Below are positions 29,532 to 63,700 of a DNA stretch of 64,000 bases, piece after piece. The stretch is taken from contig CP075497.1 of NCBI GenBank assembly GCA_021613535.1, positions 1,054,001 through 1,118,000 of the forward strand. Direction: 5' to 3'. Made by a program: the position numbers and the translations under genes. This DNA is from Adineta vaga (lineage: Eukaryota; Animalia; Rotifera). The notes under the pieces were generated by a model. It did not search any database, had not been told where the DNA came from, and saw only the letters and a list, made by a program, of their open reading frames with translations. Every line of letters starts with the position of its first letter. The stretch's first letter is position 1.

Positions 29532-29758
29532 ATTGTATCTATCTTACTGGGTTGAGGTCCATGCGGACCCTAGGTGGGTAATAAGTGGTAGTCCTACAGG
29601 CGGGCGTATGAGGGTTAAATTTGGATGAAAAACAAGAAAAAACCAAATGAGACAAAGTGAGAGAGAGAAGAGGATACAGGACTTGAGTATCCTGGAGTAC
29701 CCAGTCTGCTTTATTGGTTTGAAGAAAAATGAGAAAAGTTTTGAAATGAAAAAAACAT

Positions 29759-35448: not shown

Positions 35449-36023
35449 ATGCAATCAAATCGCTTTCCATCGCTCACTTATCTCTGGTGCATCGCATCGA
35501 TTCTACTTATCATTGGAGGCAATGTTAATGCAGATAGCAAAAATGACATTGAGAAGCGTTTACAAACTGAACTTCTCGCATTGGGATTTCCAAATGGACA
35601 ATTACCTACGCTTACACCTGCTCTGGGAAATTATGTCGATGTCGTTGAAGTCAACAAACTGTTGTTTCTCTCAAGTGCTGCGCCACAAACGCCACAAAGC
35701 ACCTTTGTCAAAGGACGAGTTCCAACGGAAGTTAGTCTGGCCGATGCAATAATTGCTTCCAAATTAGCATGTGTACGTCAAGTGAATAGAATGAAAAACC
35801 ATTTAGGCGACCTAAATAAGGTGAAAAAAATTGTTTTCATCAATGGTAAAATACAGTCGCAGCCTGATTTTACTAATCACACTCTTGTTGTCGTGGATGT
35901 TCAAGCTTTCTAGTCAATGTATTCGGTGAGAAAGTAGGTAAACATGCGCGCACAACTGGTGGATTAACATCTTTACCATTCAATGTTACTCTCGAAGTAG
36001 AGACCATTGTTCAAGTGAAATAA
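35449..36023 (+). pseudogene. Bacterial-type Rid (YjgF/YER057c/UK114) family gene with signal peptide; 1-nt frameshift at ~35892
   Basis: GNYV..V..LLFLS..P..KGRV..LGDLNKVKKIV.ING..PDFTNH, continuing in another frame as GCSSFLVNVFGEKVGKHARTTGGLTSLPFNVTLEVE. Confidence 0.8.
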
Positions 36024-43397: not shown

Positions 43398-46016
43398 TTA
43401 TAATCGTTTACGAATTTCTGCAAGTAAAGCATCAAGTTTGTTTGAATCATTGCCCAGAAGATAGAGAAGACGTTGACGTGCTTTCAACACGACACCATAC
43501 CATAATGATGAGAATGCAGCAAAACTTGTTTCCAATACAACAATGACAATAGCTGAGACAATTATTTGATTATTTGCTAGTTGTTGGAATGTATCCAACG
43601 AATGTCCTGTCAATTGTTCGATACTTTCTGAATCTAAATCCCAACTACCGTCAAATTTTTGCTGAGCGATCAAATGACGAACACTATCTTGATTGTATAT
43701 GTATTGTGGATCTCCAGAATGATGACTGAAAGTGCTCGGCGTATCCGTGACTGCCGAATACTGAAAAAAGAAAAATCAACATAGAGATCTTAAAATTCTA
43801 TCATAATTTCGAAAAATATGAGACAAATATTTTACCTGTACTGACGGAACATGAGTGTAGTCATTTAACAGGGAACGCAAAAACTGTCTTGCCAGATTTG
43901 AGGGTGTTGAATAATGAGAAGGATTCGAGCTCGAAGAGAATCCACCAATGTAACCGTCACCATTGATGTCACGCCCAATGGCCCTCTCTAACCTGCTGAG
44001 ATAACCGCCACCATTTAAATCCGCTCCATACCTTCTTTCCAACATGTTGGCAAGTCTCGAATTCATTGCTCCATAATGTGCATATAAGTGTTGGTCGTCG
44101 ACCGATATTTGAATTGGTACTTCACTCAAAATCATATCAGCATTATTTGAATTGATTCGTTTCTCGACGCCAACAAAAGCTGTGTGATGACTAAGAATAT
44201 GATATTGAAGAGATAATTCCGTAATACGTTTCTTTATGTTATGCTTCGCTATTTTGTCTTCATTATAAGCTACTAAAGTTGACTGTTGTTCTAGTAAACT
44301 ATTTTGTAAAGAACCAAAACTTATTTTCGATTGAGATGAGGGTAATTTGACATGTTGTAGTTCAAGAATAAGCGCTTTCGCAGCCAGTCGAGTAATCATA
44401 TTATTACTACCTACACTATGCGATTGAAATAGTTTTGTTTCACACAATCGATACTGTTCTATCGTTAGTTCAACACTTGAATTAGGATCGAATTGAGCAG
44501 ATTTATTATCAGTTAGCGCATAAATAATTAGACGTTCACCAGCATAAATAGGTGGTATTTTAGTTGGAGCGCTAGTTACTGGCATTCTATTCAAATGCCA
44601 ATTAACTTGAATATTCATAATACATGGTTGTAATGCTTTCTGTAGTTGTTCACCGACGTAAAAATCGACACTGCTGTTTGGTGGAATAAAGACATAGCGA
44701 CCGTTCGTTGCGCGAGCTAATCCTTTGACAAGCGAACGACTAGGAGATGAACCCAATCCAAATGAAAAGATACGAGTTGAAGTAGCCATTGTTCGACAAA
44801 GATCAATCACTTCCTCGACATTAGAAATTTCACCATCAGTAAGAAGAAAGATTTGTCGAGCATGACCTTGACGTGGTGGTTGGCCTTCAAGCCATTGAAG
44901 AGAGTGTAGCTAGATAAAGAAAATTATTCATCATGTCCGGAAGGCAATGTTAATTAAAAGTTTACTCACTAGTTCAGTACCACCTAAATTAGCTCTGATT
45001 TTTTTAATGTATTGTTCAGCTTTTTCCGTATTTTCTTCATTATAAATATCTGTAATATCTTTGAATAGAGATTTATATTTAGATCCAAATCGAATAATAT
45101 TAAAGTAAGAATTAAGAGGTAAACTCTTAAGAAAAAGTGAAATTGCTTGGCGAGCTAGACCAATTTTGTTATCAGAATCCATTGAACCACTACAATCAAT
45201 AATAAAAATAAATTCATTCATCATTTGACCATGAAAATTTCTGAACCGTTGGAAGTCATTGTCACTAGGTGTAAATGATAACATCACTGCACCTGCTTCA
45301 ACGGCAACAAATGTATTCGATCGATCTGCAGTTAATTGCATATCTAAAATAATATCACGATCTAATTGAGTATTTTGTTGAGCAAATATAATTGTATAAT
45401 AATATTGTTCATTGGAATATATTTGAATTGGATGAGATGGTGAGTTGATTTGTCCGATTCCAAGTTTGTTAACGTGACAACGAAAATCAATCGTATACGA
45501 ACTCGAGTGAACATAAATAGAAGTGGTATTCGCAGGTGAACTGATACCACCTTGACTGGGATTGTAACGAGAAGCAATCGTTGTTGGAAGAACAAATCGA
45601 ATCTTAGTACTATTTTCGACAAGATCCAATTCAGAAACATATGAGATAATTATTTGACACTCTTTACCAGATGGAATAGCACCAATATTAACGATGAAAT
45701 TATCTTGTGATTGATCATTTTGTTCAAATAGATAAGCTCCATGACCTGCTTGTAAAGCATCATTATAATCTTTTTGTGCTTTCTTTTTCTCTTTCAATAT
45801 GGCAATTATTTCTCGATCATCAATCCGTGCTACAAAACTGTATATAGCTGCTTGCTCTTCGATTGGAAAACAATATACAGCTTCAATTGATGTTCGTTCA
45901 TCATTACGAAATATTTGAGTAATACATACATTAGCAGCATATGATTGAATCGTAGCTGAAATACTTACTCGTTTAAGGGGAACATATAATTGTGTATTGC
46001 TTTTTATTAGAAGCAT
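43398..46016 (-). CDS. VWA5A-like protein (VIT + vWA domains); introns ~44910-44969 and ~43761-43835
   Basis: VIT: EAVYCFPIEEQAAIYSF..A.L. vWA MIDAS: FIIDCSGSM, LGGTE, FLLTDGE, RIFSFGLG. C-terminal QQKFDGSW. Start may extend upstream. Confidence 0.9.
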
Positions 46017-47300
46017 ATTCAAATGAATGATGTATCGTAAATAAACACTTCCTTTTTATCTACCTGTAGAATATATTACATTTTCTTACTCATGTAATTA
46101 CATATAAATAAGTGTGACACATAACCCATGATATCTGAGCCCTTATTGAGGAAGTAGACGATAACATTGATTTGAAAAAAACAAACAAATAAAATATACT
46201 CTTCACATCGTTCAATATCTGTTTCATCAGATTTTATTTGATTAAATAATTGAATTAGAAATTTAAGACAAATACTGAAAATCATAAAGCTTTTTTTTTA
46301 TTGTAAATGGTAATGAATAAATCTATATATATATATATATAGAACTGATTTCTGTTTGATTACCTTCAATATGAAAAGCGAATTGATTTGCAGATAAGGG
46401 ATATTTTACATTATTACGAAAATATTTTGATATCGTTGAAAATCATATATGATTTAATAGAGCGCAGGATACTTTTGGTATTATGTTGAGATAGTCTATA
46501 CTTGGAAATTCACTCTCATAACATATAGAAAGGCTATCTGTTATTTCGAGTTGCGTAAAAACTTTTATAAAGAAGAAAGTTCAATTCAATGTACATTACA
46601 TCAAAATACTTTCATTAAACTAAAACAATGACATTGAAAGTATAGATAAAGGTTGATTGTTCATATACATATCCTCAAGATTTTCTTTTTTTGATAAACT
46701 AAGTGAGATATTTGTAGAATACATCATCTTTGTTGTGATTGTTTTAGTTTGACTAAAAAGAAGATTCAATTACTGAGAAATAAATTCATAGATTTTTCTC
46801 ATTGATTTGGATTAGACAGAAGTTTCAATTGATAATTTCTGTTAATCTCAACATGTTGACGATTTATCATTAGTTTTCTAGTATAAAATTGAATGATTCT
46901 AATATTTGACAACGTATGTGTTACACGTCATTATTACAAATACTCTGGGACAACTAAGAATTACATAGTTCAGTGATACCCACGTCTGATCGGTCTTTAC
47001 GACGCAGTTTTACATTATTTTTATGAATATAGAGAATAAACAAAGTAAAATAAATAAATCAATAAATTCTTTATGCATCTTCGAGTAATAATTCTGTTCC
47101 AGTATCATTATTCCCATCAAATATTTTGACTCACGAGATGTCGATGATGGACTTAAAATAGGTTGTGAGATTTGCCACATGTCATGCTTTGTTTCTAGAA
47201 TGCGAACTGAATGTAATTTCTTATATTTGTTCAATATATCTTCACGAATACGATGCTGAACATACAAGGGTAATATTAACAGTTGATATTCAATATATCA

Positions 47301-47366
47301 GGTATGGGTGAGGGTGTTAGTTAAAAAGAGATCGTCGCACAACTCCACACCCACACCCTCAAGATG
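47301..47366. repeat. Telomere-like inverted-repeat element (copy N)
   Basis: GGTATGGGTGAGGGTGTTAG - spacer - CCACACCCACACCCTCAAGATG. Confidence 0.8.
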
Positions 47367-47503
47367 AATTCAAGTGTGATAACAATGAACTATAAAACGC
47401 AACACACGAGATCACATTCGTGATAAAAAAAAAGAGAAAGAGAATGAGAACAGAAATAGATAATGTAATGTGTATCCATGTCTACATTATCGACACACCT
47501 TCA

Positions 47504-50500
47504 CTATTTATTTTTAGGCGTCGGCCATTGATCATCGGGAATATGGGTAGTAGTTTCTACTTCTTTTATTTTGGTTTGAGAATTTATTCTGGTCACTGTA
47601 AGTTTATAGTTAGGACTGCTTTCAGAACTTGCTGGATGTCCAAAGATTGTCTGCAGGTGCGTAGGGCCACATAAATCTGGCTCATTCTGATCATTTATTT
47701 TATTATGCAGAACTAATGTGGCTTTGTCAGCCAAAGCGTAAGTTGTGTCCTTATTTTTCGCTGAATCAGTTATGAGAACCGGTTCCTTTAAAGGGAATGT
47801 TACTTCTGCTTTAACAAATTGTGGATCTTGCGATAAGCATTGGTTTCCAATGATGTATTCCATGCCCTCTCTGAAACATTTGGTTTGATCATTTTTGTTA
47901 ACGAAATTTGTATGATTTTGTTTTTTAGCTATCTTATCATGTGACAGGTTGCCTTGTATATGGTCGTTTGGATGTCCTGCTGCGTTTGATCCATGAGGTT
48001 TAACACCTTGAGATCCATCTAACACGAATCTTTCTTCACCAAGATGATGTTTAAATCCTCCCATTATCAATGCATCTTTCTTGTACTGCTCCAATCTTTC
48101 AATATCATGAGCCTGATTAGCAAGGTTGGCCTTATTATTTTCCATTCTAATGGCTATATCATTTCTTAGTTGATTGGGATCTTTTCCTGTTTGTTGAGCA
48201 ATAACATTAAATAAACAATTGTTTTGATCACCATTTCGAATCATCGGTTCTTGACTGTCTGGCAAAGTCCAGTGACCCTGAGGATTATCGATCGTTGGTT
48301 TATGGTATTGTACTTCTATTGGATCACCACTTTTGTTCTCACCAATAATACGTATAACTTGTCCCTTGTCATCGAACACTTTAATTGATCTGCCAGTTTC
48401 ATCACTGAGTGATCCCAAGTGAGGTAGTCCAGCCTCGCCACCATCTTTTAAATCACGTACCATATCTTCTACTTTCTTTACTGCTTTTGGATCATCCGCT
48501 CCATATTTGAATTCATTTGGTATCCTATTATTTCTATCACCATCCTGAAAAAATTCTATTCTTCTTTGTGCTTGATAATTATTAATTTGAAATTGTATAT
48601 TTCTGTCTAAGTCTGCAGTTAATAATGTCATACTATGATTAATACCAACATCAGTAACTAGAACAATCAATTTACGTTGTATAATATTACAAATATGTTG
48701 CGATACATTCCTTGCTAATGCTCTGTATAAGTCATCGAAAGATTTATTTTCTCTTCCCAAATTGACTTGTTCAGGTTCTGGTACATTTTTAAGATCGATG
48801 TCTTTACTTGATGTTTCTGGAATATAAGTCGATACATAAGTTAGAGTATCTTCTTCTTTCATGCATATCCTGCGTTTTTGTTCACTTGTTGTGTGCTGTT
48901 GTTGTTGTTGTTCTAATTTCTTGTAATTTTGAGTTTCTTTTTCATCTAATTTTTCTTCTTTGTATATATTTTCGACTACTTCGTTTAATTTTTCTATGAA
49001 ATTAGGCACAAATTTATCTAACTCCTCTAAAGTTTGTTTTACTTGAACAGCTTTCAATACTGCCGATAAACCGGATATTTTCTGTGTAGCAATACCTTTA
49101 ACTATACCAATAGTTATAGTTTTTAATGCACTTTGTTGTTCAGTTGAATGGAATAATTTCATTGCTTTTTGTCTGATAAGACGTTCATAGTAATTATTTC
49201 GATTTTTTTCATCTAATTGCAGCATTTTTTTCACTTGATGATTGATTAATAAAGCATTTTGTATTGGCTTTTCAACTCGTTTCATAACTTCGTCTTGTAT
49301 AATAGGCATCAATGATTTACTTACACCATGATCAACGAGTTGTGTTATTAATTCTTTCGCTATACCTTTCGCTAAACCTGCTGCAATAGCTTTCGCTGCT
49401 AATATCCATCCTGTTTTTACTGTTGTCGTCATAACTGTACCGATGCTACTCACTCCTGCCAGTACAGTTTTTGCTACATCTAGCATTGCACCAAATCCGA
49501 CACATACAATAGCTACAGTCAAACTAATAGCTTTTTGTATTCCATATGATTTCCAATCAAAATCTCGATTGATAATGCCGCGTTGTACTATGATAATTAG
49601 ATCACTAACACCTTCAGCAATTAATGCTGTACCGATGGCACTACCTATACCGGCAGTATATACAGCAAGTGCTGCTCCAGCAACTATTTGTACAATACCA
49701 AGACTGGCAACAATAATAACTGCAGACCAATCAATCGGTTTCAATCCTTTTATTTTAAAGGATCCGAAAAATCCATTATTTCTATATTCTTCAATTTCAT
49801 CGCTATACAACGTAATATCTTGATCTCGTGGTAATAATTGTTCAATATCTAAATATTCAACTTCAATATCATAATTATCTTTTCTTGCTTGATCAATACA
49901 TCCATGTTCTTGTTCTTCATTATTAACTTCTTCTATTGTATTTCCAATTGCTAATTCAATTGTATATTTTTGTATACTAAATAAAAGCATTTTGCATCTT
50001 AATTGTTCAGATAAAGCATCAGAAATTGATGTTTGTTGAATGACATGTAACATTGGTTCTAAATTCTCTTCGATAATTTGTTTTGCTCGTTTAAAATCCT
50101 TAATTGCTGCATCAATTTTGTCTTTATTTCGCTTACAATCTTTTCCATATTCAGCAAGTAGTGCGTATCCACGATTATAATATGCATTAACTTGAAAATG
50201 TTCATCTAATTTGATTGCTTTTGTAAATTCTTCGATTGCTTCTTGATTTTTTCCTGCATCTTTTTTCTTTAAACATTCATTTCCAATTAAAACATGAAAA
50301 CATGGATTTCGAATTAAAGTATTTTCTGCATTATCTTTCAAAATTTCTTGTTCAAATTCTTTAAATTTTCGCAACATCTCGTCTTTTGTTATTGTTTTCG
50401 TTGATTCTTGCATTTTTAACCAAATACCAAATCTATCTTCAACGGCACGTAATTTTATTTTCTTTTCTTTTGTTTGTATATCATCATTTCCATTAATATT

Positions 50501-53500
50501 TGTAAGTAACTTACAAAATTCTTCAAATACTGCATCTTTAATTGTTACTTCATCTATTTGTAGTACTGCTTTACCTATTTCAATTTCTTCCTGTTCATCT
50601 CGAATTGTTTTTAAATTCAAATAATTATTTTCATCTTGTTGTAATAAAATAAATTGACCAGTGCCTTTATTTCCTGTTCTTGATGTTCGACCAACATTTT
50701 GTTGTTCAACTCGTTGATTTGGTGGTAAAAATGTAACCAAAACATGTAATCCACCATATTTTTCAATTTTATCAGCTCGAATGTCTGTTCCTCTACCAGC
50801 AATATTTGTAGCAATAATGATTTCACCCGATGTCAATTCTTCTTCGAGAATTTTCGATTCATCTCCTGTTCTATATGTTTTTATTTTTGATTGATCATAA
50901 TTCGCCTTAATCAATCGATTTTTAATTTCATCCACTTCTTGAATATATTTCGTAATTATTAATACACCTCGTCCATTTTTGAGTTTATTCATTGAACTTT
51001 CAATAATATTCTCATACCAATCATCGACATTATTCACAATAATTGGTGTTAATTCTTGATATTGTTTTTTTCTAAATGGTGGAATAATAACATTGTCTAC
51101 TTTATAAATTTCACTTAATAATTTTTGAGCAGCTTGACTACCAAGTGTACCTGTTAATCCAAAAAGATTTGAACCATATCGTCTGAAATAAGTTACATTT
51201 GAGATAAAATTCGTTGTAAAACTTTCGGCACAAATTTTAGCACCATGTTTCATCTGTAAAAATTGATGTAATCCATTACTCCAATGCATATTTGCTTGAA
51301 TAATTCCTGTATTACTTGCATCAACTGGTACAATCTTTCCATTTCTAAGAAGATAATGTTGTTGATTATGACATCGATATTTTGCATGAATTGCACTATC
51401 AATCCATTTGGTAAGTTGACATTCCAATATTAATTTTCTTAAATGTTCAGGAATTTTAATTTCAGGATATTTCTCTGGTATATTTTGATCAATATCTCGA
51501 ATTAATTTCCTTAGATGTTTTTCTGTACAATTTTTAATAAAATCTTCTTTTGATTCTTTAATTTCAACAGCTTGTGTAGCAATATCATATCTAATCTGAC
51601 CTTTATCATCAAATATATCAGGTTGTTCAATGAAATAAGTTTTACCATTAGTTTCTTCAATATATTTGGCAACTTCTCCAATCTGAATCCAAATTGCTGC
51701 TAAAAGTGGTTCTAAATTATCCATTGCCGGCATTTGAGATGATAACATCACAATATGATTTCTTTCATCAATTAACATTGAATCAACTTCATCAACAATT
51801 GCCACATCACATTTTCGACCATTTCGAGTACCTAATTTACTATATTCATCACGTAAAATATCACCTTGAAAATCACTTGCTGCACCATAAACAATATCAG
51901 CTGTATATCGTATTTTAATATCTACTAAATCTTTTCCATTATGAGATACAGTTAAATTGAATTGTTGATAAAATTCCTTTAATTGTATCGATTGTGGCTT
52001 AGCTAATTCAGGTGAACTTGTAACAACATCTACATGATGTCCATCAAGAGCTTTAATTGCAGCTAACATGGCTACAATTGTTGTTTTTCCTTCTCCAGTA
52101 TTGATTTGTACGAGACGTCCAGTTTTTTGTTCAGAATTTATCAATATCAACAGTGATAATACTTGAATTTCTCTTACAGGAAATTTGCTCGTAATTTCAA
52201 TTGCTTTCATTACAATGGCAATTTTTTCATGATGAGTAACGGAATTCGATGGTTTTTTAATGTCTTCTGTCCATTGTTGTATGTCTGATGTTGACCATTG
52301 TTGAATGCAATTAGAATTTGGATATAGAACAGATTTACCTCGATAAATACTTTGAATATTTTCATATTCTTCTGTAATTTTTTTCTCGTCAATAAATGAT
52401 ATTGTTTGATTTGGATTTAAATCTAAGATTTCTTCGATTAATTCTTGAAAGTTTTTATCATAAGAACGTTGAAATGTTTGAAATATCGCTAAATCATGTA
52501 TTTGTTCAGTTAAATCTTCTGATAAAATCGATGTTAAAATATCAATTAACATTTTTCCTTGAATATTATTATCAAATTCTTTTAAACGATATTCATAAAT
52601 TGGATCTAATGCATCAAATAAATGTTTGATATCTTCATTTGAATCAATATAATTAATTATTTGTTGTATTGATTTAAGTGTCCAACCAGAATGTAAAATT
52701 TTAATCAATTTTCCATGTAATTTCTTTATTAATTCACATTTGTTAATGTCAATTATTTGATTATTTAAATCTAAATTCTTATATAGAATTTGTTTATTTG
52801 TTGAATTGATTTCTACACAAATTTGATTTAAAATTTCTTCAATTTCATCATCAGATATTTCATTTATAAATTCCTTAACTGAATTTAATTTTCTTTTTTC
52901 AATTCCAATTAAATCTCGATCTAATATTTTCATTCGATTCTTTTCTGTACTATAAATTTCATTAATTTTCAATATATGTTTAATATTCTTCTTTAATTTA
53001 CTCTCTTGACGAAAATCAATTTCATTACCTTGAATTATTTCTGATGCTTCAATTACATACAAATATTCAGAATTATTTTTATTAATTAAATCTTCTTCTT
53101 GTGATAATAAACAAATTGATATACGTAATCCATTTTCAAATTTTTCAGTTTCATCAGTTGTTATTGGATATGTTACATGTTCATTATTTTCTAATAAATC
53201 TTTGATGAATTTTAATTCAACAGAATGATAATTGACCATTTTTCTTTGTTTATACGATTGAAATAAACTTAATACATAGATTTTCGGGAATTGTTTATGA
53301 CGAAGTTCAATAACTTGTTTTTGTGTAATAAAATTCCATTTGTCAAAATTATTAATAAATAATTTCTGTTTTTGTTTCGATAAATTTTCTGCCATAGATT
53401 TCATATTTGCAAGAGTAAATACTCCGCAATTATAATCATCAAATTGATCACATGATCGATGAAATTTGAAATTGACATTTTTTAATTGTTTAGTAAGAAT

Positions 53501-56500
53501 ATTTTGTATTTCTATTCGTTCTACAATGGAATGATGTTCACCCATCGAATCTTTGTATAATACAATATTTTCTTTCTTCTTTTCATTGTATATTAATGCT
53601 AAACTAATCCAATGATTATTCGCAATATTCAATGGAATAATCGTTGTTCGATGATCTTGTTTATATTCTTTTAAAACATCATATAGATTTCTTTCTTCTT
53701 GTTTTCCTAATGGTTGAGTAATTCGAAATTTAGTTCGATCAAATTCTTTCATCCATTCTATTAATATTATTGCTATATCTTCTGCTTTATAACAATATGT
53801 TGTTTCTGCTTGATTATATGCATTTTGTTCAATTGATGTTTTCTTTCTTCTAAAATGATAATTTTGAGTATCATGAAAATATTGTGAATAAAATGTAAAT
53901 TTCTTCGATAATAATATTTCAATTAATTGTTCATTGAATTTTAATTGTAAATTTTTTAAATTAATTTTATTTGATATTTTATTTATTAAAAAATATTCTT
54001 TACTTTCTATTGTTAAATTACAATTAAATAATTGAATAAAAAATTGAATTAATTCATCAATATTTGGATCTTCTATTAATTGAGATAAAACAAAATGAAT
54101 TATTTTTATTCTATATGGTAAATATTCATTTAATTTTCTTAATTGTTCAATATGAAATTGTTTCAATTGTTTCTTTAACCATAATTCACGTAATTTAATA
54201 AAACAAATTTGAAAATGACAATCATTCATTATAATATTCCATGCTTTGATTTCATTTAATTGAATTAACATTAATAAAACATCATTTAATATTTCAAGAT
54301 GAAATTGACATAGATTTTGTTTTTCAATTAATGATTCTAATAAATTTTCAATTGAATAAACATTTTGATCTTGTGTAAGAATAAATGTATTTAATAAATG
54401 AATATATTTACGAAAATTTTCTAATTCAAATATATCAACACCAGCAATGGAAGTTATTTCAAATGTTTTAACTAATAATTCACTACATAGAATTTCTTTT
54501 CGCCATTGTTTTCTATGAAATTTATGAAAAATATTTGTATCAATTCTTCTTCGATTGAAAACACTGTTGTTTAATGCACATAATAAACGAAATTTTTCTA
54601 AATTATTACAATCAGTAGTATTCGTATGATCCAAGGAAATAAATTCATCGATTGGTTTTAATTCATCAGGATGAACATCAAGTCGTTGTTTAAGTTTATT
54701 GTAATATGTTTGTAACCAAGTATTATCTGATGGATTTTCGTTAATAAATTTGTCTAAACTTTCAAATAGAAGTTTATTTAGGAGAAAATCTTGATTATCT
54801 TCTAATTCTAATGTACGACATTTTACTAAATCAATAATTGTTGTTTCTCGAGATATTTGAGAAGAATATTGTTGAAGTTCTTTTGATAAAATACGAGCAC
54901 AAAGAATTCTTATTTCAATACTTTCGTTTTTTTGTTCTAAAAGTTTTGCACATTTTTCTACGACTTTCATTGATATATTTTTCTTTTGTATAGCAATTTT
55001 TACTGTTGCATAAAATAAATACTTCTTTAATTTTTCATCTTTTTCTTCATCAATTAATAATAATTGTTCCCAAAGTTGTTTTATAATTTCCTCTGATAAT
55101 TCCATATTACGACTTAAACAAACAGCTAAAATTCCGATAACCATAACAGATTTGAGTAATTCGGTATGTTCAGTTATTCGATTGATATTTGTATTTGTTA
55201 GACCTTGTTTAAGATTTATTTCAAATAATATTTCACTTATCTTAGAACGTATATCATCGAAGTTCTGATCATGTTTATTTGTTAAGACATCAATTAAACA
55301 TTGAATTTGCTTCTCACTGATGCCATATCCTTCTTGAACAAGTTTTCTTAAGTTTTCTAATGCAGTTGTATTAAAATCTAAGATTTGACAGCATTCAAGT
55401 TTGTATAATTCATCCGGTAGAAAAGATTCAATCGTAGTACCATCATTTTTATATTTTAAAATTTGTATATCATGTTGATCACATTCAATTATTGAATTTT
55501 TGATCATTTTCACAATACTCTCACGAACTTCATCATGTATTGTGCGAAAAGCAACTTCTAACAGATATGGTAATTTATCAGAAAGTAAGTTTTCATTTTG
55601 TTTTACGTTAGATATTTGAATTAATAATATCAATACTTGTTTAGATGTTTCGTTAACATAAACATCGTGAGTTTGAATTCGATCTATTATCATTGGTAGA
55701 AATACTATTAAATTTTCATTTTGTGGATCTTTAATTATAAATTGAGTAATGTCATCAATGGAAATATTATGATCATGTTCAATAGATCTTCCAATTTCAA
55801 TCCAATCAATATTAAAATCATGTGGTAATATTTTAATCAATACTTTGAAGGCATCGCTTCTTAAATCGATATCATATTTAATTAATGATTGTAATATATT
55901 GATAGTATCTAATGTAGAATTTTCTTCTTCTTTGATTAAATTTTCCAAAGCAATTTTTCGTATTTCTAAATCATTCCGTGAATTTTTCAATAAATTTAAA
56001 TTTCGTGAATAATTATTGTTGTTTTCGGACATGTTGAGTCGATCAAGAATAGATTTTGAAATATCATATCCATTTTGATATTCAGCGTATAATAAATCGA
56101 AAATATCGTTACGAAAATTTGATAGATGTTGTAAAATAAATTCGTCGATATTCGGAATATTTTTCAAACTCATTTGTTTAGTCTTAACTAATGATTTACT
56201 TAACGAAATTATGTTCTTAGCTGTAGACGTGTCTAATAATGATAATTCTATGTACTCATGACATTTTTCAATGAAAAATTTTGGTAAAATCTGTATTTCT
56301 AATTCAATAATTTCGATGATCAGTTCAAGTTTTTCATTCATATGAAAATATTTCGTTAACTTTTCAAAACAATTCAATGTGAGTCGATTTTTCTTTTTAA
56401 CATATTCTAAACAATCATCAACTATACTCGAATCATCACTTAAACACTTGTTTTCTAATCGAATAGCGTCACTAATATATGCAATATCAATATCTATACA

Positions 56501-57433
56501 TTGTTGTAGAATTTTCAATGTATCATCTCTCACTTGTTTATCTTCATTTTCAATCAATATTCGATAGAAATATTTTAGTACACTTGGATATTCTCGTAAA
56601 ATCAATTTTCTACTCAGATCTTCAATTAATTTTCGTTGATCAAATGGTATTGTTGGTAATATTTCATCTAATGTTCTCTCTATATCGCTAAATTTAGACA
56701 TGTCGATGAACTTAAATATTTTTATAATAGCTAATGATACTTCTATATTTTCAGTTATTTGTCCTGCTTCTATGAGCTTTTTCAGTGCTCCTAATGAGAG
56801 TTTGTCTCGATTAGATAATTCCGCATTCTCTGCTATGTATCCAAGTAGAATAATTAAATCATTGATATTAATCATTTTACTAGCTTCTACTTTTCTAGTA
56901 CAATAGTCTAGTTCATATAGAACATCATCGAGTTCATAAATGATATCCATAGCTTTATCACAATCGACTGTACTATTTAATTCGTATTCTAATTGAATTC
57001 TCGTATTGTTCAAAGTGTTCTGTTTATTAGTATCTTCGAACTGTTTGAGTAGAATATCTAAGTTGTTGAATGATAACAAATCTGGAATTAATTTTCTTAT
57101 ATTAGTCAACCATGTTAATCGATCATTTAGTGCAAGACCTAACTCATTCGCCACTTGAATATTTCTACTATCGGTACGTAATGTCTCATCGATTTCATCA
57201 ATCTTCTCTATGTATCGATCATTTTCTTTACGAAAGAATTTCTTCATTTCCTCTTGGATACTTTTCTCAAACGCTTGTCCTCTCTCCTTCAAAATTACAA
57301 ACAAATCGATGACGATATCTCTCAAATCAATTTTATCCTGGTCTCGCGGTGAAAAATTCTTATTTTCTAACGTAGCACTTAACTTCATTAATTGTTTATC
57401 TTGGAGTTTATATGCCTCGTCCTTATCAATCAC
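47504..57433 (-). CDS. Giant SecA-like ATPase polyprotein (helical repeats, Ulp1/C48 peptidase, SecA DEAD, TPR, hydrophobic segment, OTU-like, C-terminal toxin-like domain)
   Basis: 3309-aa uninterrupted ORF. SecA motifs QINTGEGKTT, DEVDSMLID, GLHQFLQMKH, GLTGTLG, ATNIAGRGTDI, GGLHV, RVEQQNVGRTSRTG. C48 motifs NNHWISL..KDSMG..QFDDYNCG. Confidence 0.9.
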   Translation of the reverse strand: MIDKDEAYKLQDKQLMKLSATLENKNFSPRDQDKIDLRDIVIDLFVILKERGQAFEKSIQEEMKKFFRKENDRYIEKIDEIDETLRTDSRNIQVANELGLALNDRLTWLTNIRKLIPDLLSFNNLDILLKQFEDTNKQNTLNNTRIQLEYELNSTVDCDKAMDIIYELDDVLYELDYCTRKVEASKMININDLIILLGYIAENAELSNRDKLSLGALKKLIEAGQITENIEVSLAIIKIFKFIDMSKFSDIERTLDEILPTIPFDQRKLIEDLSRKLILREYPSVLKYFYRILIENEDKQVRDDTLKILQQCIDIDIAYISDAIRLENKCLSDDSSIVDDCLEYVKKKNRLTLNCFEKLTKYFHMNEKLELIIEIIELEIQILPKFFIEKCHEYIELSLLDTSTAKNIISLSKSLVKTKQMSLKNIPNIDEFILQHLSNFRNDIFDLLYAEYQNGYDISKSILDRLNMSENNNNYSRNLNLLKNSRNDLEIRKIALENLIKEEENSTLDTINILQSLIKYDIDLRSDAFKVLIKILPHDFNIDWIEIGRSIEHDHNISIDDITQFIIKDPQNENLIVFLPMIIDRIQTHDVYVNETSKQVLILLIQISNVKQNENLLSDKLPYLLEVAFRTIHDEVRESIVKMIKNSIIECDQHDIQILKYKNDGTTIESFLPDELYKLECCQILDFNTTALENLRKLVQEGYGISEKQIQCLIDVLTNKHDQNFDDIRSKISEILFEINLKQGLTNTNINRITEHTELLKSVMVIGILAVCLSRNMELSEEIIKQLWEQLLLIDEEKDEKLKKYLFYATVKIAIQKKNISMKVVEKCAKLLEQKNESIEIRILCARILSKELQQYSSQISRETTIIDLVKCRTLELEDNQDFLLNKLLFESLDKFINENPSDNTWLQTYYNKLKQRLDVHPDELKPIDEFISLDHTNTTDCNNLEKFRLLCALNNSVFNRRRIDTNIFHKFHRKQWRKEILCSELLVKTFEITSIAGVDIFELENFRKYIHLLNTFILTQDQNVYSIENLLESLIEKQNLCQFHLEILNDVLLMLIQLNEIKAWNIIMNDCHFQICFIKLRELWLKKQLKQFHIEQLRKLNEYLPYRIKIIHFVLSQLIEDPNIDELIQFFIQLFNCNLTIESKEYFLINKISNKINLKNLQLKFNEQLIEILLSKKFTFYSQYFHDTQNYHFRRKKTSIEQNAYNQAETTYCYKAEDIAIILIEWMKEFDRTKFRITQPLGKQEERNLYDVLKEYKQDHRTTIIPLNIANNHWISLALIYNEKKKENIVLYKDSMGEHHSIVERIEIQNILTKQLKNVNFKFHRSCDQFDDYNCGVFTLANMKSMAENLSKQKQKLFINNFDKWNFITQKQVIELRHKQFPKIYVLSLFQSYKQRKMVNYHSVELKFIKDLLENNEHVTYPITTDETEKFENGLRISICLLSQEEDLINKNNSEYLYVIEASEIIQGNEIDFRQESKLKKNIKHILKINEIYSTEKNRMKILDRDLIGIEKRKLNSVKEFINEISDDEIEEILNQICVEINSTNKQILYKNLDLNNQIIDINKCELIKKLHGKLIKILHSGWTLKSIQQIINYIDSNEDIKHLFDALDPIYEYRLKEFDNNIQGKMLIDILTSILSEDLTEQIHDLAIFQTFQRSYDKNFQELIEEILDLNPNQTISFIDEKKITEEYENIQSIYRGKSVLYPNSNCIQQWSTSDIQQWTEDIKKPSNSVTHHEKIAIVMKAIEITSKFPVREIQVLSLLILINSEQKTGRLVQINTGEGKTTIVAMLAAIKALDGHHVDVVTSSPELAKPQSIQLKEFYQQFNLTVSHNGKDLVDIKIRYTADIVYGAASDFQGDILRDEYSKLGTRNGRKCDVAIVDEVDSMLIDERNHIVMLSSQMPAMDNLEPLLAAIWIQIGEVAKYIEETNGKTYFIEQPDIFDDKGQIRYDIATQAVEIKESKEDFIKNCTEKHLRKLIRDIDQNIPEKYPEIKIPEHLRKLILECQLTKWIDSAIHAKYRCHNQQHYLLRNGKIVPVDASNTGIIQANMHWSNGLHQFLQMKHGAKICAESFTTNFISNVTYFRRYGSNLFGLTGTLGSQAAQKLLSEIYKVDNVIIPPFRKKQYQELTPIIVNNVDDWYENIIESSMNKLKNGRGVLIITKYIQEVDEIKNRLIKANYDQSKIKTYRTGDESKILEEELTSGEIIIATNIAGRGTDIRADKIEKYGGLHVLVTFLPPNQRVEQQNVGRTSRTGNKGTGQFILLQQDENNYLNLKTIRDEQEEIEIGKAVLQIDEVTIKDAVFEEFCKLLTNINGNDDIQTKEKKIKLRAVEDRFGIWLKMQESTKTITKDEMLRKFKEFEQEILKDNAENTLIRNPCFHVLIGNECLKKKDAGKNQEAIEEFTKAIKLDEHFQVNAYYNRGYALLAEYGKDCKRNKDKIDAAIKDFKRAKQIIEENLEPMLHVIQQTSISDALSEQLRCKMLLFSIQKYTIELAIGNTIEEVNNEEQEHGCIDQARKDNYDIEVEYLDIEQLLPRDQDITLYSDEIEEYRNNGFFGSFKIKGLKPIDWSAVIIVASLGIVQIVAGAALAVYTAGIGSAIGTALIAEGVSDLIIIVQRGIINRDFDWKSYGIQKAISLTVAIVCVGFGAMLDVAKTVLAGVSSIGTVMTTTVKTGWILAAKAIAAGLAKGIAKELITQLVDHGVSKSLMPIIQDEVMKRVEKPIQNALLINHQVKKMLQLDEKNRNNYYERLIRQKAMKLFHSTEQQSALKTITIGIVKGIATQKISGLSAVLKAVQVKQTLEELDKFVPNFIEKLNEVVENIYKEEKLDEKETQNYKKLEQQQQQHTTSEQKRRICMKEEDTLTYVSTYIPETSSKDIDLKNVPEPEQVNLGRENKSFDDLYRALARNVSQHICNIIQRKLIVLVTDVGINHSMTLLTADLDRNIQFQINNYQAQRRIEFFQDGDRNNRIPNEFKYGADDPKAVKKVEDMVRDLKDGGEAGLPHLGSLSDETGRSIKVFDDKGQVIRIIGENKSGDPIEVQYHKPTIDNPQGHWTLPDSQEPMIRNGDQNNCLFNVIAQQTGKDPNQLRNDIAIRMENNKANLANQAHDIERLEQYKKDALIMGGFKHHLGEERFVLDGSQGVKPHGSNAAGHPNDHIQGNLSHDKIAKKQNHTNFVNKNDQTKCFREGMEYIIGNQCLSQDPQFVKAEVTFPLKEPVLITDSAKNKDTTYALADKATLVLHNKINDQNEPDLCGPTHLQTIFGHPASSESSPNYKLTVTRINSQTKIKEVETTTHIPDDQWPTPKNK

Positions 57434-58128
57434 TCTCGCAAAGCTGACAGAATTTTCTGTAACGCAGGCTTCAGACGAAATTTGAAATCATCACTTAGTC
57501 CTATCTCTACTATCAGTCTATCGAAATTGTTCGTAACACTAGAAGCAGTACAAAATTTCATCTTTTGGAATCGTTTTGCGCACAGCTTTTTACTTTTACA
57601 AACATTCTTTAATATCATCAAGTTCGCAAATGCTATAGAAATATCGCTACCACTCACCAAATATCCTTCTTTCTGATTATGCTCAACGAAATCAATTTCT
57701 GAATTTGTACCCAATGTTGCTGTAATCTTTTCTTTAAATCTCTGTTTTTCCGAGTCATATTCTGTTGTATCCAATGAATCCTTCATGAATATTGTAATCT
57801 TTCCATTCTCTGGTACTAAACCGAATGTGAACCAATGTTCTTTATGATTGCGAATAAATGTGTCTTTTTGTTTTTTAATTTCACATATGGCAAACAGACC
57901 AGCTGGACTCTTCTTAATGTATTCTTTGATTTTACTGTCGATATCGGAGCAACTATCAAGTATGTATTTCTTAATACTATTTTGCAACGAAACAGCATTG
58001 AATGTATGATCAGTGATATAAAGAATTTGAAATCGAGCTCCTTCAAATTGCTGTGTATTAGTTAACGAAACATCGGATGGTACTGATTGTGTGGATGCTG
58101 ACGAACGATCTCGTCCACTGTTCGACAT
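57430..58128 (-). CDS. 232-aa ORF with a degenerate Ulp1/C48-like domain; probably the N-terminus of the SecA-like gene (frameshifted)
   Basis: ATG start. HWFTFGLV..IFMKDSL..Q..FANL parallels HWISLALI..LYKDSMG..Q..LANM in the giant ORF but lacks the catalytic Cys. Its TGA overlaps the GTG of the next ORF. Confidence 0.7.
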   Translation of the reverse strand: MSNSGRDRSSASTQSVPSDVSLTNTQQFEGARFQILYITDHTFNAVSLQNSIKKYILDSCSDIDSKIKEYIKKSPAGLFAICEIKKQKDTFIRNHKEHWFTFGLVPENGKITIFMKDSLDTTEYDSEKQRFKEKITATLGTNSEIDFVEHNQKEGYLVSGSDISIAFANLMILKNVCKSKKLCAKRFQKMKFCTASSVTNNFDRLIVEIGLSDDFKFRLKPALQKILSALRE

Positions 58129-59375
58129 AAAGTATGATACGATCAGATAATTATTTTGTTAAAATTAAAGATCTTCGTTAATCGATGTGAACTATATAGA
58201 ACATATTATTGATTCTTCAAGAAAGTCTAGAGTAAAAAATGTATGAAAGATACTCGGGAAATGTTCGCTTTAGTTGAATGACAGTATTTAGCTTATTCAA
58301 AAAGAACAGGTCTAAATTATGGGAATTCTTTTAAGGAGCAGACCTCATACAATTACAATTAGTACACAAACGAGAAACAGACAAAAAATCGCTAAGAAAA
58401 TTGTAAAAAAGTGTTACATACTCGACTCACGTCGGTTTTTGTTTATGTTGTGTGTCAAAAAAAAACAATAAGTAAATCTAGAATAAAAAAATCTTTGAAT
58501 TCATTTTCTAGTGCCTTCTATATATTCAATACAATAGATCGAAACAATGATTAATTATTATTACAAAAAATTTCAAATTATCATCATTCATATTTGTGGC
58601 ATTTCATTGAGCAATAGTCAAACACCGATTGCTAGAATAATTGACTGATGCAATCCGATCTAATTTGTTTTACAACTTCATCTTTTACGGCTGTTTTGTA
58701 CGTTCTTCTACTGGAAATTCCAATAAAAGATAATTAATTTGAATACCCGATTCTAAATGAAATACTTGCGAAAGTTCGTTATTACAAAGCAACGTAAAGA
58801 ATAATCGAACATGATGTAGATTGTCCCAATCTGCTCTTATTGCCATCAAACACCTTGCTTCCTGATTTGTATGCCCAAAAAGTAATCGTTCAAGATGGTT
58901 TTGTCTAAGATATACAGTGATGCTGAGCGACGAAGGAAGTTTGTGATGATTAATGTTTTTTTCCAGTTTGTCAGATTTTCTCACTGATAAATAGCGTATC
59001 CAGTTGTTTCACTGTATTACAGAGATAACACCTAGAAACATTTGGATTGGGAAAATATATTGTTGCAGCTGACGATTTCTTGCTTCAATGAGCCAATAAT
59101 GGATCGACGACGCAGTCATTTGCGTATCTGGATAAGTGAACTTCATTCTTCCATTCAATTCACTTGGACGCTGCGCTACAGGAGATTTTACTTTACATGC
59201 AGAATACAAAAATAGAGCTGAGTACAAAAAAACGGACAATCAAAAACTTGAAAAACAATTAAATACAACAAAAAAGAAAACAACACATTGATCAGTTTAA
59301 CAATAGAAAATAAAATAGAACTAAACAATCAGCACTACTAAGAATACTACTGCGATTTGTCTATTTTCCGTTCTC

Positions 59376-60749
59376 TTACTTCAGTTGCATGATACGATTC
59401 TTTTCCGTTTCCTTTTCCAATCGAATCAAATTTCGCTCTTTATAATCAGGAGACCACGTATCGTTCATTATCATTTCCATTGCTTCGTCGAAAGTATTAG
59501 TTTTATCTGGAAAGCGATCTCTCGCGAAGTCTATTGCCTGTTCCGCTTCCGTATACGCTTTATTTTTTATGAATGCATCTATCACCAATACGAATGAATT
59601 GTGAATAACATCTAGAATCTTCTTCGAAGCAGCAGCCTGGAACTTTTCAGCTGCTTCTTGATATTTTCCAAGTGCTTCTTCTATTTTATAAATTGCTTCT
59701 TTTGCTCTTCCTTTTTTAAATAATCTTAATCCTTTTTTATTTAACTCTAGAGCGTCTTTTTCTGCTCTTTGTTCTTTTGTGGTCTTTTGTTCAGCGGGTC
59801 TCAGCGCTACGACTCTCTGTTCCGTGACTCTCTGCTGTTCGGCGGCTCTCCGAGCTTCTGCGACTTTCACTGCTGCCATTCTTCGTCTTGGTTTCGCTGC
59901 AACTGTTTGCTCCTTACTACTATCCACGCTACTACTATTTCTTCGTCTTGGTTCTACTGCAACCACCTCCTCCTCGCTACTACTATTTCTTCGTCTTGGT
60001 TTTACTGCAACCACCTCCTCCTCGCTACTACTATTTCTTCGTCTTGGTTCTACTGCAACCACCTCCTCCTCGCTACTACTATTTCTTCGTCTTGGTTCTA
60101 CTGCAACCACCTCCTCCTCGCTACTACTATTTCTTCGTCTTGGTTTTACTACAACCGCCTCCTCCTCGCTACTACTATTTCTTCGTCTTGGTTCTACTGC
60201 AACCACCTCCTCCCCGCTACTACTATTTCTTCGTCTTGGTTTTACTGCAACCGCCTCCTCCTCGCTACTACTATTTCTTCGTCTTGGTTTTACTGCAACC
60301 ACCTCGTCCTCGCTGATATCCTCGCTAATATCCTCGCTAATATCCGCGCTGCTATCCTCGCTACTACTGTTTTTTCTTTGGTTTTTATCGCTACTATCGG
60401 TGGTAGTTTGCTTGTCGATAGTCTTGTCGGATTCCTTGTCGCTAGAGCTTGTGCATTGGCAGCGCTTACAAGTTAGATGGGCAGTATGGTCTGGAAGACA
60501 AGAATCGATAATTGGACTACATTTGCCACATTGGGAACAAAGAGTGCAACTGCGGTCCCCATCTGATAAGAATGACCTACGCACGTTTTCATAGGTGGTG
60601 CCGTAGTTCCCACCAATACCTGACGTTCGTGATGTTGCTAGCCCATAGGTAGAAGCAACTATGGTTATAGGATTTGACGAGTTGGTAAGCGGCGTTCGAT
60701 CATGCGCACTCGTGGTTTCGAAAGTATGGAATCCACTGTTCATCTTCAT
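59376..60749 (-). CDS. 457-aa protein: Cys/His cluster, 16-aa tandem repeats, C-terminal TPR-like helices
   Basis: Single ATG-stop ORF. CTLCSQCGKC..C..H..H..CKRCQC; (PRRRNSSSEEEVVAVE/K)n; ALELNKKGLRLFKKGRAKEAIYKIEEAL is TPR-like. Confidence 0.7.
   Translation of the reverse strand: MKMNSGFHTFETTSAHDRTPLTNSSNPITIVASTYGLATSRTSGIGGNYGTTYENVRRSFLSDGDRSCTLCSQCGKCSPIIDSCLPDHTAHLTCKRCQCTSSSDKESDKTIDKQTTTDSSDKNQRKNSSSEDSSADISEDISEDISEDEVVAVKPRRRNSSSEEEAVAVKPRRRNSSSGEEVVAVEPRRRNSSSEEEAVVVKPRRRNSSSEEEVVAVEPRRRNSSSEEEVVAVEPRRRNSSSEEEVVAVKPRRRNSSSEEEVVAVEPRRRNSSSVDSSKEQTVAAKPRRRMAAVKVAEARRAAEQQRVTEQRVVALRPAEQKTTKEQRAEKDALELNKKGLRLFKKGRAKEAIYKIEEALGKYQEAAEKFQAAASKKILDVIHNSFVLVIDAFIKNKAYTEAEQAIDFARDRFPDKTNTFDEAMEMIMNDTWSPDYKERNLIRLEKETEKNRIMQLK
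59881..60313. repeat. Coding 48-bp tandem repeat, ~8 copies plus one variant
   Basis: Unit CTTCGTCTTGGTT(C/T)TACTGCAACC(A/G)CCTCCTCCTCGCTACTACTATTT. Confidence 0.95.
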
Positions 60750-63700
60750 TGTGGTTTATTGCTGGTCCTCTAAATAGAAATATAAAGTTACTCTTACTTA
60801 CAAGCCAGTGCAATATTATTTGCTGCTTCAAAGTGGCTGACTATTCTTTGCAGAATCGTAGTAGTGTAAGAAACGAAATTCGAAGTCAGCTGTTGAAGTG
60901 ATTCTCAATTATTGCACCCATGGAGCTTTCTTATTCGACCGCGCTCTCTACAAAACAACATATTTCAATTCTTTTTTCTCCTAGAATACTGCTGACAAAT
61001 ATCAACTTATTTCATTAGCAATGAGTACTTTATGAAAGTGATATATAAAGGCATAATCAGAATTTAGGGTACGTTCTTATCTAGGTACAATTCGACTTCC
61101 TTCAGGGTAAGTTATAGTAGTGTCTTTCCTATAGATGATTTTACCATGTTAACCAGTTTCATTCAGCGTACTGTTGTTCAGTATAATGAACCTCTTTCAA
61201 AATAATATACCTATATATGAGAATAAATATGTAGAATCGATTTTTCTTAAAATATCCATCCAGCTCTTACAAAGCTCCGTCATCAGTTTGGAAGAAACTT
61301 TTTCAATCCAAATTTGAATGCTTATTCGAAAAAAAGCTTAGATTCTGAATACACTTTCCATCATTGCAATGTCGTAGTCAAGAGGAAAAGTATACATTTG
61401 AAGTACAAAAGTACTAAGAAGTACAGAGGTAATGGAGTGTAATGACAATTTAATCGAAATAGGCGAAAGCAGTAAAAAACACAGTAAAGCAGTGCTAACT
61501 AATTCTAAGTTAATGAAGGTGGTTAAAGTATGTCATATAGTGATTAATACAGTTCAAAAAGACCTATATTTACAGTAGATGGAGTTTTTGTACATCAAGG
61601 CAAATGATCGGGAACATACGTACTATTTCGAACACTAGTCTCCTTCGATAGGATTTGTTAGCAACTGAAAATGTGTTCATAAAAAGTTTTTGATCCAGAA
61701 GAAAACATGTATTTCATGAAAGTTTGAGCTTCAGATTATCGTCTGGCAAAATACACTGTCCTTATTATTTCTTTCGTTGCAAATAATAGAGATACTCTAA
61801 TAAACGTGTTCAATCAAACTTAAGAAAAAGGTATTTGCTAGAAATGATTATATATCTTTCTTTATTTCTTTATATTTATATATGTATAGATGTAGTTGTT
61901 TTGATCGACAGTTATAAGAAAATGAAAGCTTACTCAACTGAGGATTATACTTTCTAGGATGAACATTCTGGTTGCTCAGATCGTGATCTTACTACATATT
62001 CAGATTTATGGTAACTTTACCGCAGTTTGGAGATAAAGCTCTTTCTATGTGCTGAAACTAATTGTAATAAAAGTTCGTCAGTGTTGTGAAAGATGATTAG
62101 ATGATGAACCATGCTTTTCGAGAAGTGAATGATGCCATTGATGAAAGAAAGCGTGAGTTCTGCATCGATCCATGAAAGAGTTGAATCTTGATCGCTGAAA
62201 GTATTTCTAACATGAAAATATCGACTAGCGAGGGTCAGCTATACATGGTAGAATACTATCGGGTGAATAAAGAAGCCAGTTATCATGCAGTAAGCTATGT
62301 AATTTATATGATGAGAGGCACATTAAAATGCGGGTTTATTCGTTTTATTAGAGAATCAATCAGCTTGCGAGTATATAGTCATCTCACTAAAGCTCATCGG
62401 AACCAGATAGTATAATGATAATATAATTGGAAAAGCAATAAATCTATTGAATTCTATCATGTTTCTAAAATATTAGTATAAGCTTCAAAAATCAAATCAA
62501 ATATTCTCTCCTAGACTAATCCAATATCGTAGAGTTTCCAAACTTCTTGCATGACATATATTCTAGAAATGCGAGCCTAATACAACAAGCGAGACAATGA
62601 TAACAGCCTGAGTACACGAATTGACAAACCTTGGAGAAAGCTATAAACTCAATTTAAATGTTTCCATACATTCCTGGCATTATTTCAGATCACCATGCTG
62701 CCCGAATAATAAATAGTTATTGTGAATCTTAATTGTCGTTTTATAAGCATGAGATAGACTTTAATGAACTACTTTACAAAATCTATTCTCTTACCACCTC
62801 TTTTCCTAGTATACTAATTCTGAGTACATGAAATAAATAAATTAATACGTGAAGAAATTTTTTTTTCTAGATTTTATGAAGATCGTGCGATGTGACACTA
62901 TTCACTTATTCATTAATCTTCATCATCTAACTAAAGTTGGTGTACTAAGAAAAATAGCAATGAAAGAATTGTTCATTTTGAGCCGTATAACAAGCTTACG
63001 TCGAGATAGATGACAAATAACCTATTGTATTCGTATTCGTAACGCGAAAGTTTATTTCACCATAAGACTGGCTATGATTAAATTTTGTGGTGCATAGCCC
63101 GATTGCAAAAACTGCATGGGTCAAAGTTCTACTCATATGTAACATGGCAGATTTTAGATCAGTTCGAATATACATCTAGTTAAGCTGAGACTTGATTGTA
63201 ATTAGATCATAAATATACTGCTGTTCACAAATAGAAATCAATGTACTTGAAGAACAAAACGGATAAAATAATTTTCAGTGAACGAATGATCGAAAGACAA
63301 ATAGCAGATCGTAGTTACTCCTGATAAACTACAGTCGCATTAAATAGCACCGAGACTCCTAGGTTGTCTCATCTAGTTCGAAATACGGCTGTTCCCTCCT
63401 TGAGTCTAGTTCAATGAAGATCTGATCACATATAGAAATATATAGAACAATGACTTACTTAAATGTACGTGTATCTCTGTATTGCAATTATAGTCTCTGA
63501 TTTGTGACCTGTTGGTGGAATAAGTTAATGTGTGATGATATTATGACGAAGATAAACGAAATATCTTGAACAAAATAACAATATAATTGAGTTTTCAATC
63601 ATAGAATAAAAAGAATACTATTATCGAAGAACGATATCTATATAAAGACTAATATAAGCATATAGGAAAATACCAAGTAGAAAGGAAAGAAAAATAAATC

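Follow-up and report, generated by a model that had tools for sequence, protein, structure and literature searches.

The DNA analysed in this work (the window) is a stretch of 64 kb from the bdelloid rotifer Adineta vaga, and it carries on its minus strand a giant gene that runs from ATG to stop over about 3,540 codons across two open reading frames (ORFs). We propose, with a probability of roughly 0.6, that this gene encodes a domesticated polymorphic toxin in which an OTU-type protease cuts the chain after a fixed Gly-Gly (GG), a SecA-like motor delivers the tip, a predicted RNase, and the whole acts as a weapon against microbes. The parts are arranged from the N- to the C-terminus in the order dead C48, helical region, C48, SecA-like ATPase, TPR, hydrophobic helices, permuted OTU, LxxGG, and tip. 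The original prediction, which was made from the letters of the window alone, had listed an inactive C48-like domain, a helical solenoid, an intact C48/Ulp1-like protease, a SecA motor with all ATPase motifs, a TPR region, Gly/Ala-rich hydrophobic helices, an OTU-like domain and a compact C-terminal domain. All of those domains are present in the giant gene. The resemblance to a polymorphic toxin that it had seen in the layout is borne out by unrelated tips on a conserved body and by immunity-type genes beside the bacterial copies. All coordinates of the giant gene given below are on the minus strand.

The OTU-type cysteine protease (48083..48514) is circularly permuted, with His3072-Trp preceding Cys3091. 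It is followed by LIMGG (48056..48070, residues 3140-3144), which is the predicted self-cleavage site and the tip-exchange boundary. The AlphaFold model of residues 2960-3327 (predicted local distance difference test, pLDDT, 85.5) has two domains with a loose, low-confidence linker at the GG. The best solved match of the OTU part is EschOTU (6w9s; Z 6.8, root-mean-square deviation (rmsd) 4.0, 117 aligned), followed by other papain-like proteases. The core fold is recovered with a middling score, and the catalytic Cys, the His and the aromatic residue after the His are in place. This match, together with the RickCE_cat and Peptidase_C48 profile matches described below, supports the protease folds that had been anticipated. 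Permuted OTUs are active, and the termini of EschOTU are close to the S1 site (10.1101/2020.03.28.013474). The His-before-Cys core and the aromatic residue after the His are common to the rotifer OTU, EschOTU (6W9S) and the permuted OTUs of the EmcB family (PMC12501173). EschOTU and EmcB are host-directed deubiquitinases, whereas the rotifer OTU has the GG and a toxin tip in cis.

The His-before-Cys module was identified in 126 of the 182 gathered proteins, with the His kept in 121/126 and the Cys in 116/126. Homologues that carry another class of tip cease to align at ORF-B residue 3144-3146. The distance from the OTU Cys to the GG is 53 residues in 23 and 59-60 residues in three of the 26 homologues (of 30) that were caught by the pattern. 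The GG ends 87 of the 90 modules matched to their end, compared with a background of 0.003 GG per residue, a count that is partly circular because the module profile itself contains GG. Leu occupies P5 in 75/92 and P4 varies (Thr, Ile, Leu, Tyr); ubiquitin has Leu at P4. Bacterial and animal members that are about 30% identical both retain the GG, which occurs only with the OTU module and provides the fixed motif that polymorphic toxins have at the boundary of body and tip. These patterns suggest that the OTU likely cuts after the fixed Gly-Gly and releases the tip. The original prediction had listed proteases and a releasable tip in a candidate self-processing system. The candidate processing protease is the OTU, which is conserved, and not the C48 domain, because its Cys is lost in 7 of the 21 matching homologues. 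Sequence searches of the PDB with the module, and of NCBIfam with the module and the tip, gave nothing useful.

The tip (47504..48055, 183 aa) is the compact C-terminal domain and forms the second folded domain of the model. It matches CdiA-CT of Yersinia kristensenii (5e3e_B; Z 8.9, rmsd 3.1, 109/114 aligned, 6% identity; Foldseek E 0.012, probability 1.0). In CdiA-CT Ykris the active-site His and Thr matter for activity and Phe often replaces Tyr278 (PMC5435912). By their pattern, His3172 and Thr3280-x-Phe-x-x-Pro (Pro3285) of the tip are the counterparts of His175, Thr276 and Tyr278 in this toxin. Among the tips of the same class, the His is found in 33/34 and the Thr in 27/34. The fold and the His, Thr and aromatic residues of bacterial RNase A-like toxins are therefore all found, and the tip is predicted to be a nuclease of this type with the CdiA-CT Ykris fold. 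The fold and the His and Thr-x-aromatic-Pro pattern are shared with CdiA-CT Ykris (PDB 5E3E), whereas the rotifer tip has a second conserved His, is encoded by an animal gene and has no CdiI partner.

The tips differ widely among homologues. Clustering of 112 tips (at least 80 aa each, 15 with an estimated boundary) gave 48 clusters, some of which are joined by shared linkers, and the class of the window tip is the largest (n=34). The original prediction had asked whether the C-terminal ~185 aa varies while the SecA, membrane and OTU parts are conserved, and this is what was found, with matching ends at the GG and unrelated tips on a conserved body. Pfam cut-offs were passed by 6 of the 40 cluster representatives (AHH, two Endonuclea_NS_2, barnase-type Ribonuclease, DUF5675 and VirD5-like) and four further representatives have weak matches to toxin families. 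Tips in known toxin families are thus identified by Pfam, by fold for the window tip and by a WHH nuclease in a phage-like locus, and those tips that can be given a name resemble enzymes, as had been expected. The nameable tips appear to be nucleases, peptidases and other warheads of polymorphic toxins. Other labels that are suggested only by motifs (ParB-like, HH-IP nuclease, nucleotidyltransferase, transglutaminase-like, deaminase, ADP-ribosyltransferase and restriction-fold) are not counted as evidence.

Close relatives also carry different tips. Two proteins of A. steineri (P0007 and P0008) are 99-100% identical over residues 1200-2700 and diverge towards the OTU. Their tips are 17% identical and unrelated, one being RNase A-like and the other a His-Me endonuclease. 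Among close pairs with pre-GG cores at least 60% identical, 75/111 have tips from different clusters. The tip classes are spread over the motor tree, and at least 8 changes among 6 tip classes are placed on its 17 bdelloid-clade rows, a count made without a shuffle control. The comparison of these sequences indicates that tip exchange is recent and continuing in animals. Some tips are unusual in their build. One or two degenerate, non-catalytic OTU copies lie inside the RNase A-like tip of P0022, P0024, P0025, P0027 and P0028 (moth and related). P0021, from a metagenome-assembled genome (MAG) of Rickettsia, has an RNase A-like tip followed by a further C48 and a TPR-like region (684 aa after the GG). 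The frames of P0005, P0006 and P0034 stop about 31 residues past the GG with a common tail, possibly at an intron within the tip.

The bacterial copies have neighbours of the immunity type. In 6 of 11 loci of the Amoebophilaceae family, a small ORF overlaps the stop of the toxin or lies at most 14 nt from it; of the other loci, 3 run into the end of a contig and 2 are broken. Of these small ORFs, one is WapI-like (1.4e-4, weak), one is a DUF7336 and one is lipoprotein-like behind a DUF5675 tip. Two phage-like contigs encode C48-SecA-TPR-hydrophobic proteins of 3,555 aa that are 92.6% identical over 3,409 aa and differ in their tips and downstream genes. One of these loci (L035) has a WHH nuclease tip, followed by a SUKH immunity gene and, after it, an orphan tip cassette that includes a DUF6980 gene. 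Adjacent candidate immunity genes are thus seen in 6/11 loci and, as SUKH, in L035, and would confer protection. The family is considered a true polymorphic toxin system because its bacterial copies have immunity genes. The chassis is the wider unit, with the OTU-GG as one release route that is not needed throughout the family, since the phage-like members are without it. At the rotifer locus, the six frames of the 64-kb window contain no second module, tip, orphan cassette or immunity-like neighbour, and no transcribed small ORF lies just downstream; an unlinked immunity gene may exist. Two or three giant SecA-like paralogues per genome, besides the canonical SecA, were observed in the Amoebophilaceae family (G003, G027), and repeated broken module fragments adjoin a toxin-antitoxin-like pair at L008.

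The SecA-like ATPase (50318..52426) has both motor domains, the PPXD, the scaffold helix and a two-helix pair. SecA_DEAD (7e-34), SecA_PP_bind and P-loop_SecA were matched, and all five motifs (GEGKT, DEVD, GLTGT, TNIAGRGTD and QxxGRxxRxG) are present and nearly invariant in 58-63 rows. In the AlphaFold model of residues 1600-2790 (pLDDT 81), the motor superimposes on substrate-engaged SecA (6itc_A; Z 35.3, rmsd 3.2, 601/765 aligned). The superposition reaches chain residue 775 and so, by the domain boundaries of SecA, includes the scaffold helix and a pair of helices at the position of the two-helix finger, both of which are kept. The wing domain and the finger-tip motif are missing; the latter is seen in the canonical SecA of L020. 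Canonical SecA and SecA2 thus share with the window motor the motor domains, PPXD, scaffold helix and helix pair (Z 35) and all ATPase motifs. In contrast to canonical SecA, a stand-alone full-length protein with a wing in the SecA clade, the family is a separate long-branch clade, and the window motor is without a wing, is embedded in a chain of a class that spans 2,000-4,800 aa and scores about 195 where the secA cut-off is 800. The canonical SecA is retained beside the family member in the same bacterial genomes.

The motor is followed by TPR-like helices (49943..50305), which match Pfam at 1e-3, below the cut-off, and are helical in the model. Next are the Gly/Ala-rich hydrophobic helices (49450..49738, aa 2584-2680), a predicted membrane-inserting segment with a 19-residue hydropathy of up to 2.44 and a conserved EGxxD, in which Gly2626 and Asp2629 are invariant in 63/63 rows. 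A helical linker (48515..49449), modelled partly at low confidence, connects this segment to the protease.

The N-terminal part is less constant. The domain of ORF-A (57430..58128) is dead and C48/CE-clan-like, with His-Trp and KDS kept and the Cys absent. The profile of the internal C48 matches it with an E of 1.8e-12, which marks it as a dead copy of that domain. The region that follows (53798..57487, ~1,230 aa) is rich in Leu, Ile, Glu and Lys, varies among homologues and probably consists of helical repeats. The original prediction of a ~1100-aa helical solenoid is upheld for the long region itself (~1,200 aa), and the solenoid label rests on composition, as the region has no Pfam match and lies outside the structure models. 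The internal C48/Ulp1 (RickCE-like) protease domain (53348..53686; RickCE_cat 2e-10, Peptidase_C48 6e-8) has intact His1292 and Cys1354. It is the only one of the two copies with both the CE-clan profile match and the His-Asp-Gln-Cys set. The C48 domain was not found in 3 of the 24 homologues tested, and the internal C48 is accessory in the family.

The protein is proposed to be cytosolic, because an N-terminal signal is absent in most animal copies, and would be held inactive. The N-terminal repeats and C48 domains may recognise or de-ubiquitinate a compartment that contains a microbe. The ATP-driven motor would then thread the C-terminal third while the hydrophobic helices enter the membrane. 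The OTU would cut LxxGG in cis like a ubiquitin tail, as the permutation puts its C-terminus near the ubiquitin-tail site. The freed tip would degrade RNA in the target microbe.

Several points weigh against this proposal. Cleavage, translocation and RNase activity are all predicted from sequence and models. The motor has neither the finger-tip motif nor the wing and no known channel partner, which leaves its role in translocation a prediction. The structural match of the OTU is middling (Z 6.8), no Pfam OTU match was obtained for the window and one weak match (0.009) was obtained in P0021. Two phage-like members are without the OTU-GG module, and the GG and tip-change counts carry the limits given with them. 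No toxin-family Pfam match was found for 30/40 tip representatives. No pathway out of the cell is evident in any animal copy, and most animal tips are nucleases that are equally able to kill the rotifer's own cell.

The last point leads to the main rival, which uses the same chemistry and which we consider unlikely. The same processing would be directed at the own cell, with the protein as a sensor-executioner whose repeats and C48 domains, dead or live, are bait for pathogen effectors and whose nuclease kills the infected cell. In its favour, the 64-kb window has neither an orphan cassette nor an immunity gene, most animal copies are without a signal peptide, dead C48 copies are common and the nameable animal tips are nucleases. 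However, one reliable warhead would suffice for suicide, yet close paralogues keep swapping tips as in an arms race against targets that are resistant or immune, and a full motor with a membrane segment would be superfluous.

It is also improbable that the OTU is an ordinary deubiquitinase, the GG a mere flexible hinge or recombination point, and the protein a multi-domain effector that acts uncut. The best structural match of the OTU is indeed a deubiquitinase, P4 varies and members without OTU-GG exist. However, the GG lies at a fixed distance from the Cys, only with the OTU module, and is kept at about 30% identity. Bacterial copies aimed at other bacteria, as their immunity genes suggest, would meet no ubiquitin.

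ORF-A (57430-58158, ATG at 58128) has 232 aa and is the 5' part of the giant gene; ORF-B (47504-57487) has 3,327 aa in 9,984 nt without a stop. They overlap in different frames over 58 nt (57430..57487), and it is in this overlap that the assembly breaks the frame. A one-base length difference from the window is found in this overlap in contigs of 4/4 DNA runs (four studies) and of one further run, and the two parts are joined in one chain in 9/30 homologues. The frame break is for these reasons most likely an error of this assembly; an allele-specific lesion is possible. The joining of the ORFs to ~3540 aa in the original prediction holds accordingly, as does its claim that no introns are needed over 9.9 kb, since ORF-B is open and the sole intron detected is in the 5' untranslated region (5'UTR). 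That intron (58192..58421, 230 nt, GT...AG) is spliceosomal, and its joint 58191/58422 is present in a contig of run X19. A second spliced joint corresponds to the removal of an intron from the adjacent vWA gene. The giant-gene body is largely covered by contigs of 3 of the 4 RNA-like runs, with more cover at the 3' end. The RNA status of the runs is inferred from the spliced joints (X19) and from gene-limited cover (X11/X13), none being on record as RNA, and assembled contigs show transcription only, not expression levels. The giant gene is host-integrated and transcribed and, as far as the reads show, is intact in life.

These observations bear on the idea that the gene is a selfish element or came by a recent horizontal transfer and is functionless or decaying. 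The frame break in the assembly, the patchy distribution and the large uptake of foreign DNA by bdelloids (PMC11258130) speak for it. It is nonetheless very improbable, as the break is absent in 4/4 DNA runs, the 10-kb open frame and motifs are intact, the 5'UTR intron and transcripts exist, an 18-row clade on the motor tree has named members from Adineta and Rotaria, and no terminal repeats were found around the giant gene. The term 'SecA' did not occur in the searched parts of 15 of the 16 supplementary files of PMC11258130, the largest table lying outside that search. Misassembled symbiont DNA, which the close relatives in Rickettsia and Amoebophilaceae might suggest and which the original prediction had named as a possible refutation, is effectively refuted by the NCBI model I4U23_027593 of Adineta vaga, which is the best match of ORF-B at 99-100% identity and lies on a host contig of 13.9 Mb, by DNA-run contigs that extend beyond both gene ends in 4/4 runs at a depth like the gene body, by the spliced 5'UTR intron and by neighbours that are ordinary intron-split rotifer genes (VIT-vWA, P-type ATPase, G protein-coupled receptor and leucine-rich repeat (LRR)).

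Rotifer members were identified in the bdelloids Adineta, Rotaria and Didymodactylos and also in Brachionus. Insect members were identified in Lepidoptera (Pectinophora, Aricia, Plutella, Papilio), Lasioglossum, Toxorhynchites and Bradysia. Other animal members were identified in Opisthorchis and Lepisosteus. Bacterial members were identified in MAGs of Rickettsia, Amoebophilus, Amoebophilaceae and Bacteroidota. The motor tree (quick LG+G4, 64 rows, long branches, without a clade test) places the family far from canonical SecA and intermixes animals and endosymbionts. The mosquito protein falls among Amoebophilaceae and a Rickettsia protein falls with rotifers, insects and the fluke, while the 18-row clade is starred. 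Several transfers are implied by this mixing. The family is, as its sequences suggest, a polymorphic toxin class of bacterial endosymbionts with a self-encoded motor that has been repeatedly shared with animals, the direction of transfer not being settled.

The module was found in 11/48 genomes of the family of one Amoebophilaceae MAG and in 2/301 of a phylum sample, one being the seed genome and one weak with stops. A phage collection gave only short canonical-SecA-like matches, a metagenome scan gave two loci that are both unrelated proteins, a GTDB scan with P0021 gave no match, and an Atlas search with P0079 gave no usable match. Distant bacterial members are under-sampled in such scans of public collections.

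The family shares with the polymorphic toxins CdiA, Rhs and MafB a conserved trafficking body, a fixed boundary motif and exchangeable nuclease or peptidase tips, and its bacterial members likewise have adjacent immunity genes and orphan cassettes (PMC3482391). It differs in having a SecA-like ATPase with TPR and hydrophobic helices as its trafficking body, a boundary at a ubiquitin-like GG that follows the permuted OTU, and animal copies that keep exchanging tips without immunity genes. OTU domains have been proposed as possible processing peptidases of polymorphic toxins, and SecA-like domains are named once, among many Amoebophilus effector domains, in the portion of that work considered (PMC3482391). 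SecA-domain genes labelled as secretion have been reported in Wolbachia phage WO (PMC5062602), a SecA-like ATPase in giant actinobacterial toxins (PMC8195603) and divergent SecA in giant Omnitrophota proteins with proposed self-export (10.1101/2023.11.21.568195). These proteins have in common with the family a divergent SecA-like domain within a giant protein and a proposed export of their own chain or toxin; compared by description, the portions of these sources considered do not mention an OTU-GG-tip module, polymorphic tips or domestication by animals. Canonical SecA only is treated in the corresponding portions of PMC7397232 and PMC7046167. No description of the SecA-OTU-GG family was found in the literature, although subscription papers and the supplements of PMC3482391 and of the preprints may list such architectures. 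The SecA-motor toxin varies the plan of polymorphic toxins by its unusual motor and its unusual device for release, and it is now resident and still shuffling in animals.

Other genes and elements were also observed in the window. The upstream same-strand gene (59376-60755, -) contains a 16-residue repeat in about ten copies (48-nt period) and ends in a TPR/MIT-like part, with no match among the stored proteins or loci of the family. It may be co-transcribed with the giant gene because RNA-like contigs cover the spacer between it and the giant-gene 5'UTR. In the phage-like loci, too, a TPR gene immediately precedes the toxin gene, but no similarity to the rotifer gene was found. The VIT-vWA gene (43398-46055, -), with a spliced 60-nt intron, is directly downstream of the giant gene. 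A phage tail-collar domain gene (29544-30418, -; Collar 7e-19, Gp10_C) is a likely horizontal acquisition. A CD225/IFITM-like gene, a 727-codon uninterrupted low-GC LRR frame, FG-GAP repeats and a YjgF-like gene are also present (5133-8839, -; 12085-12783, +; 35398-35913, +), several of them looking, by sequence, immunity-type or foreign in one window. Just past the giant-gene stop codon lies a 20-30 nt element (47345-47377) to which many unrelated contigs from each of the four DNA runs match, and which is probably a short dispersed repeat.

The findings suggest a testable function for many giants annotated as 'protein translocase subunit SecA' in animal genomes. We put forward tentatively, at a little less than even odds, that animals (rotifers, moths, bees, mosquitoes, gnats, flukes and a fish) run endosymbiont-derived polymorphic toxins as an innate-immune arsenal against microbes whose warheads are renewed by recombination at the GG codons. 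If true, one chain would combine an ATP-driven translocase, a membrane segment and a ubiquitin-mimicking self-cleaving protease, and the family would be a new trafficking and processing class of polymorphic toxins with its own motor and a permuted OTU that cuts a ubiquitin-like tail in cis. The 48 tip clusters, which are mostly unnamed, are a pool of new enzyme domains. Warhead exchange would then be ongoing in animal germlines, including those of the asexual bdelloids, for which it has long been asked where immune diversity comes from.

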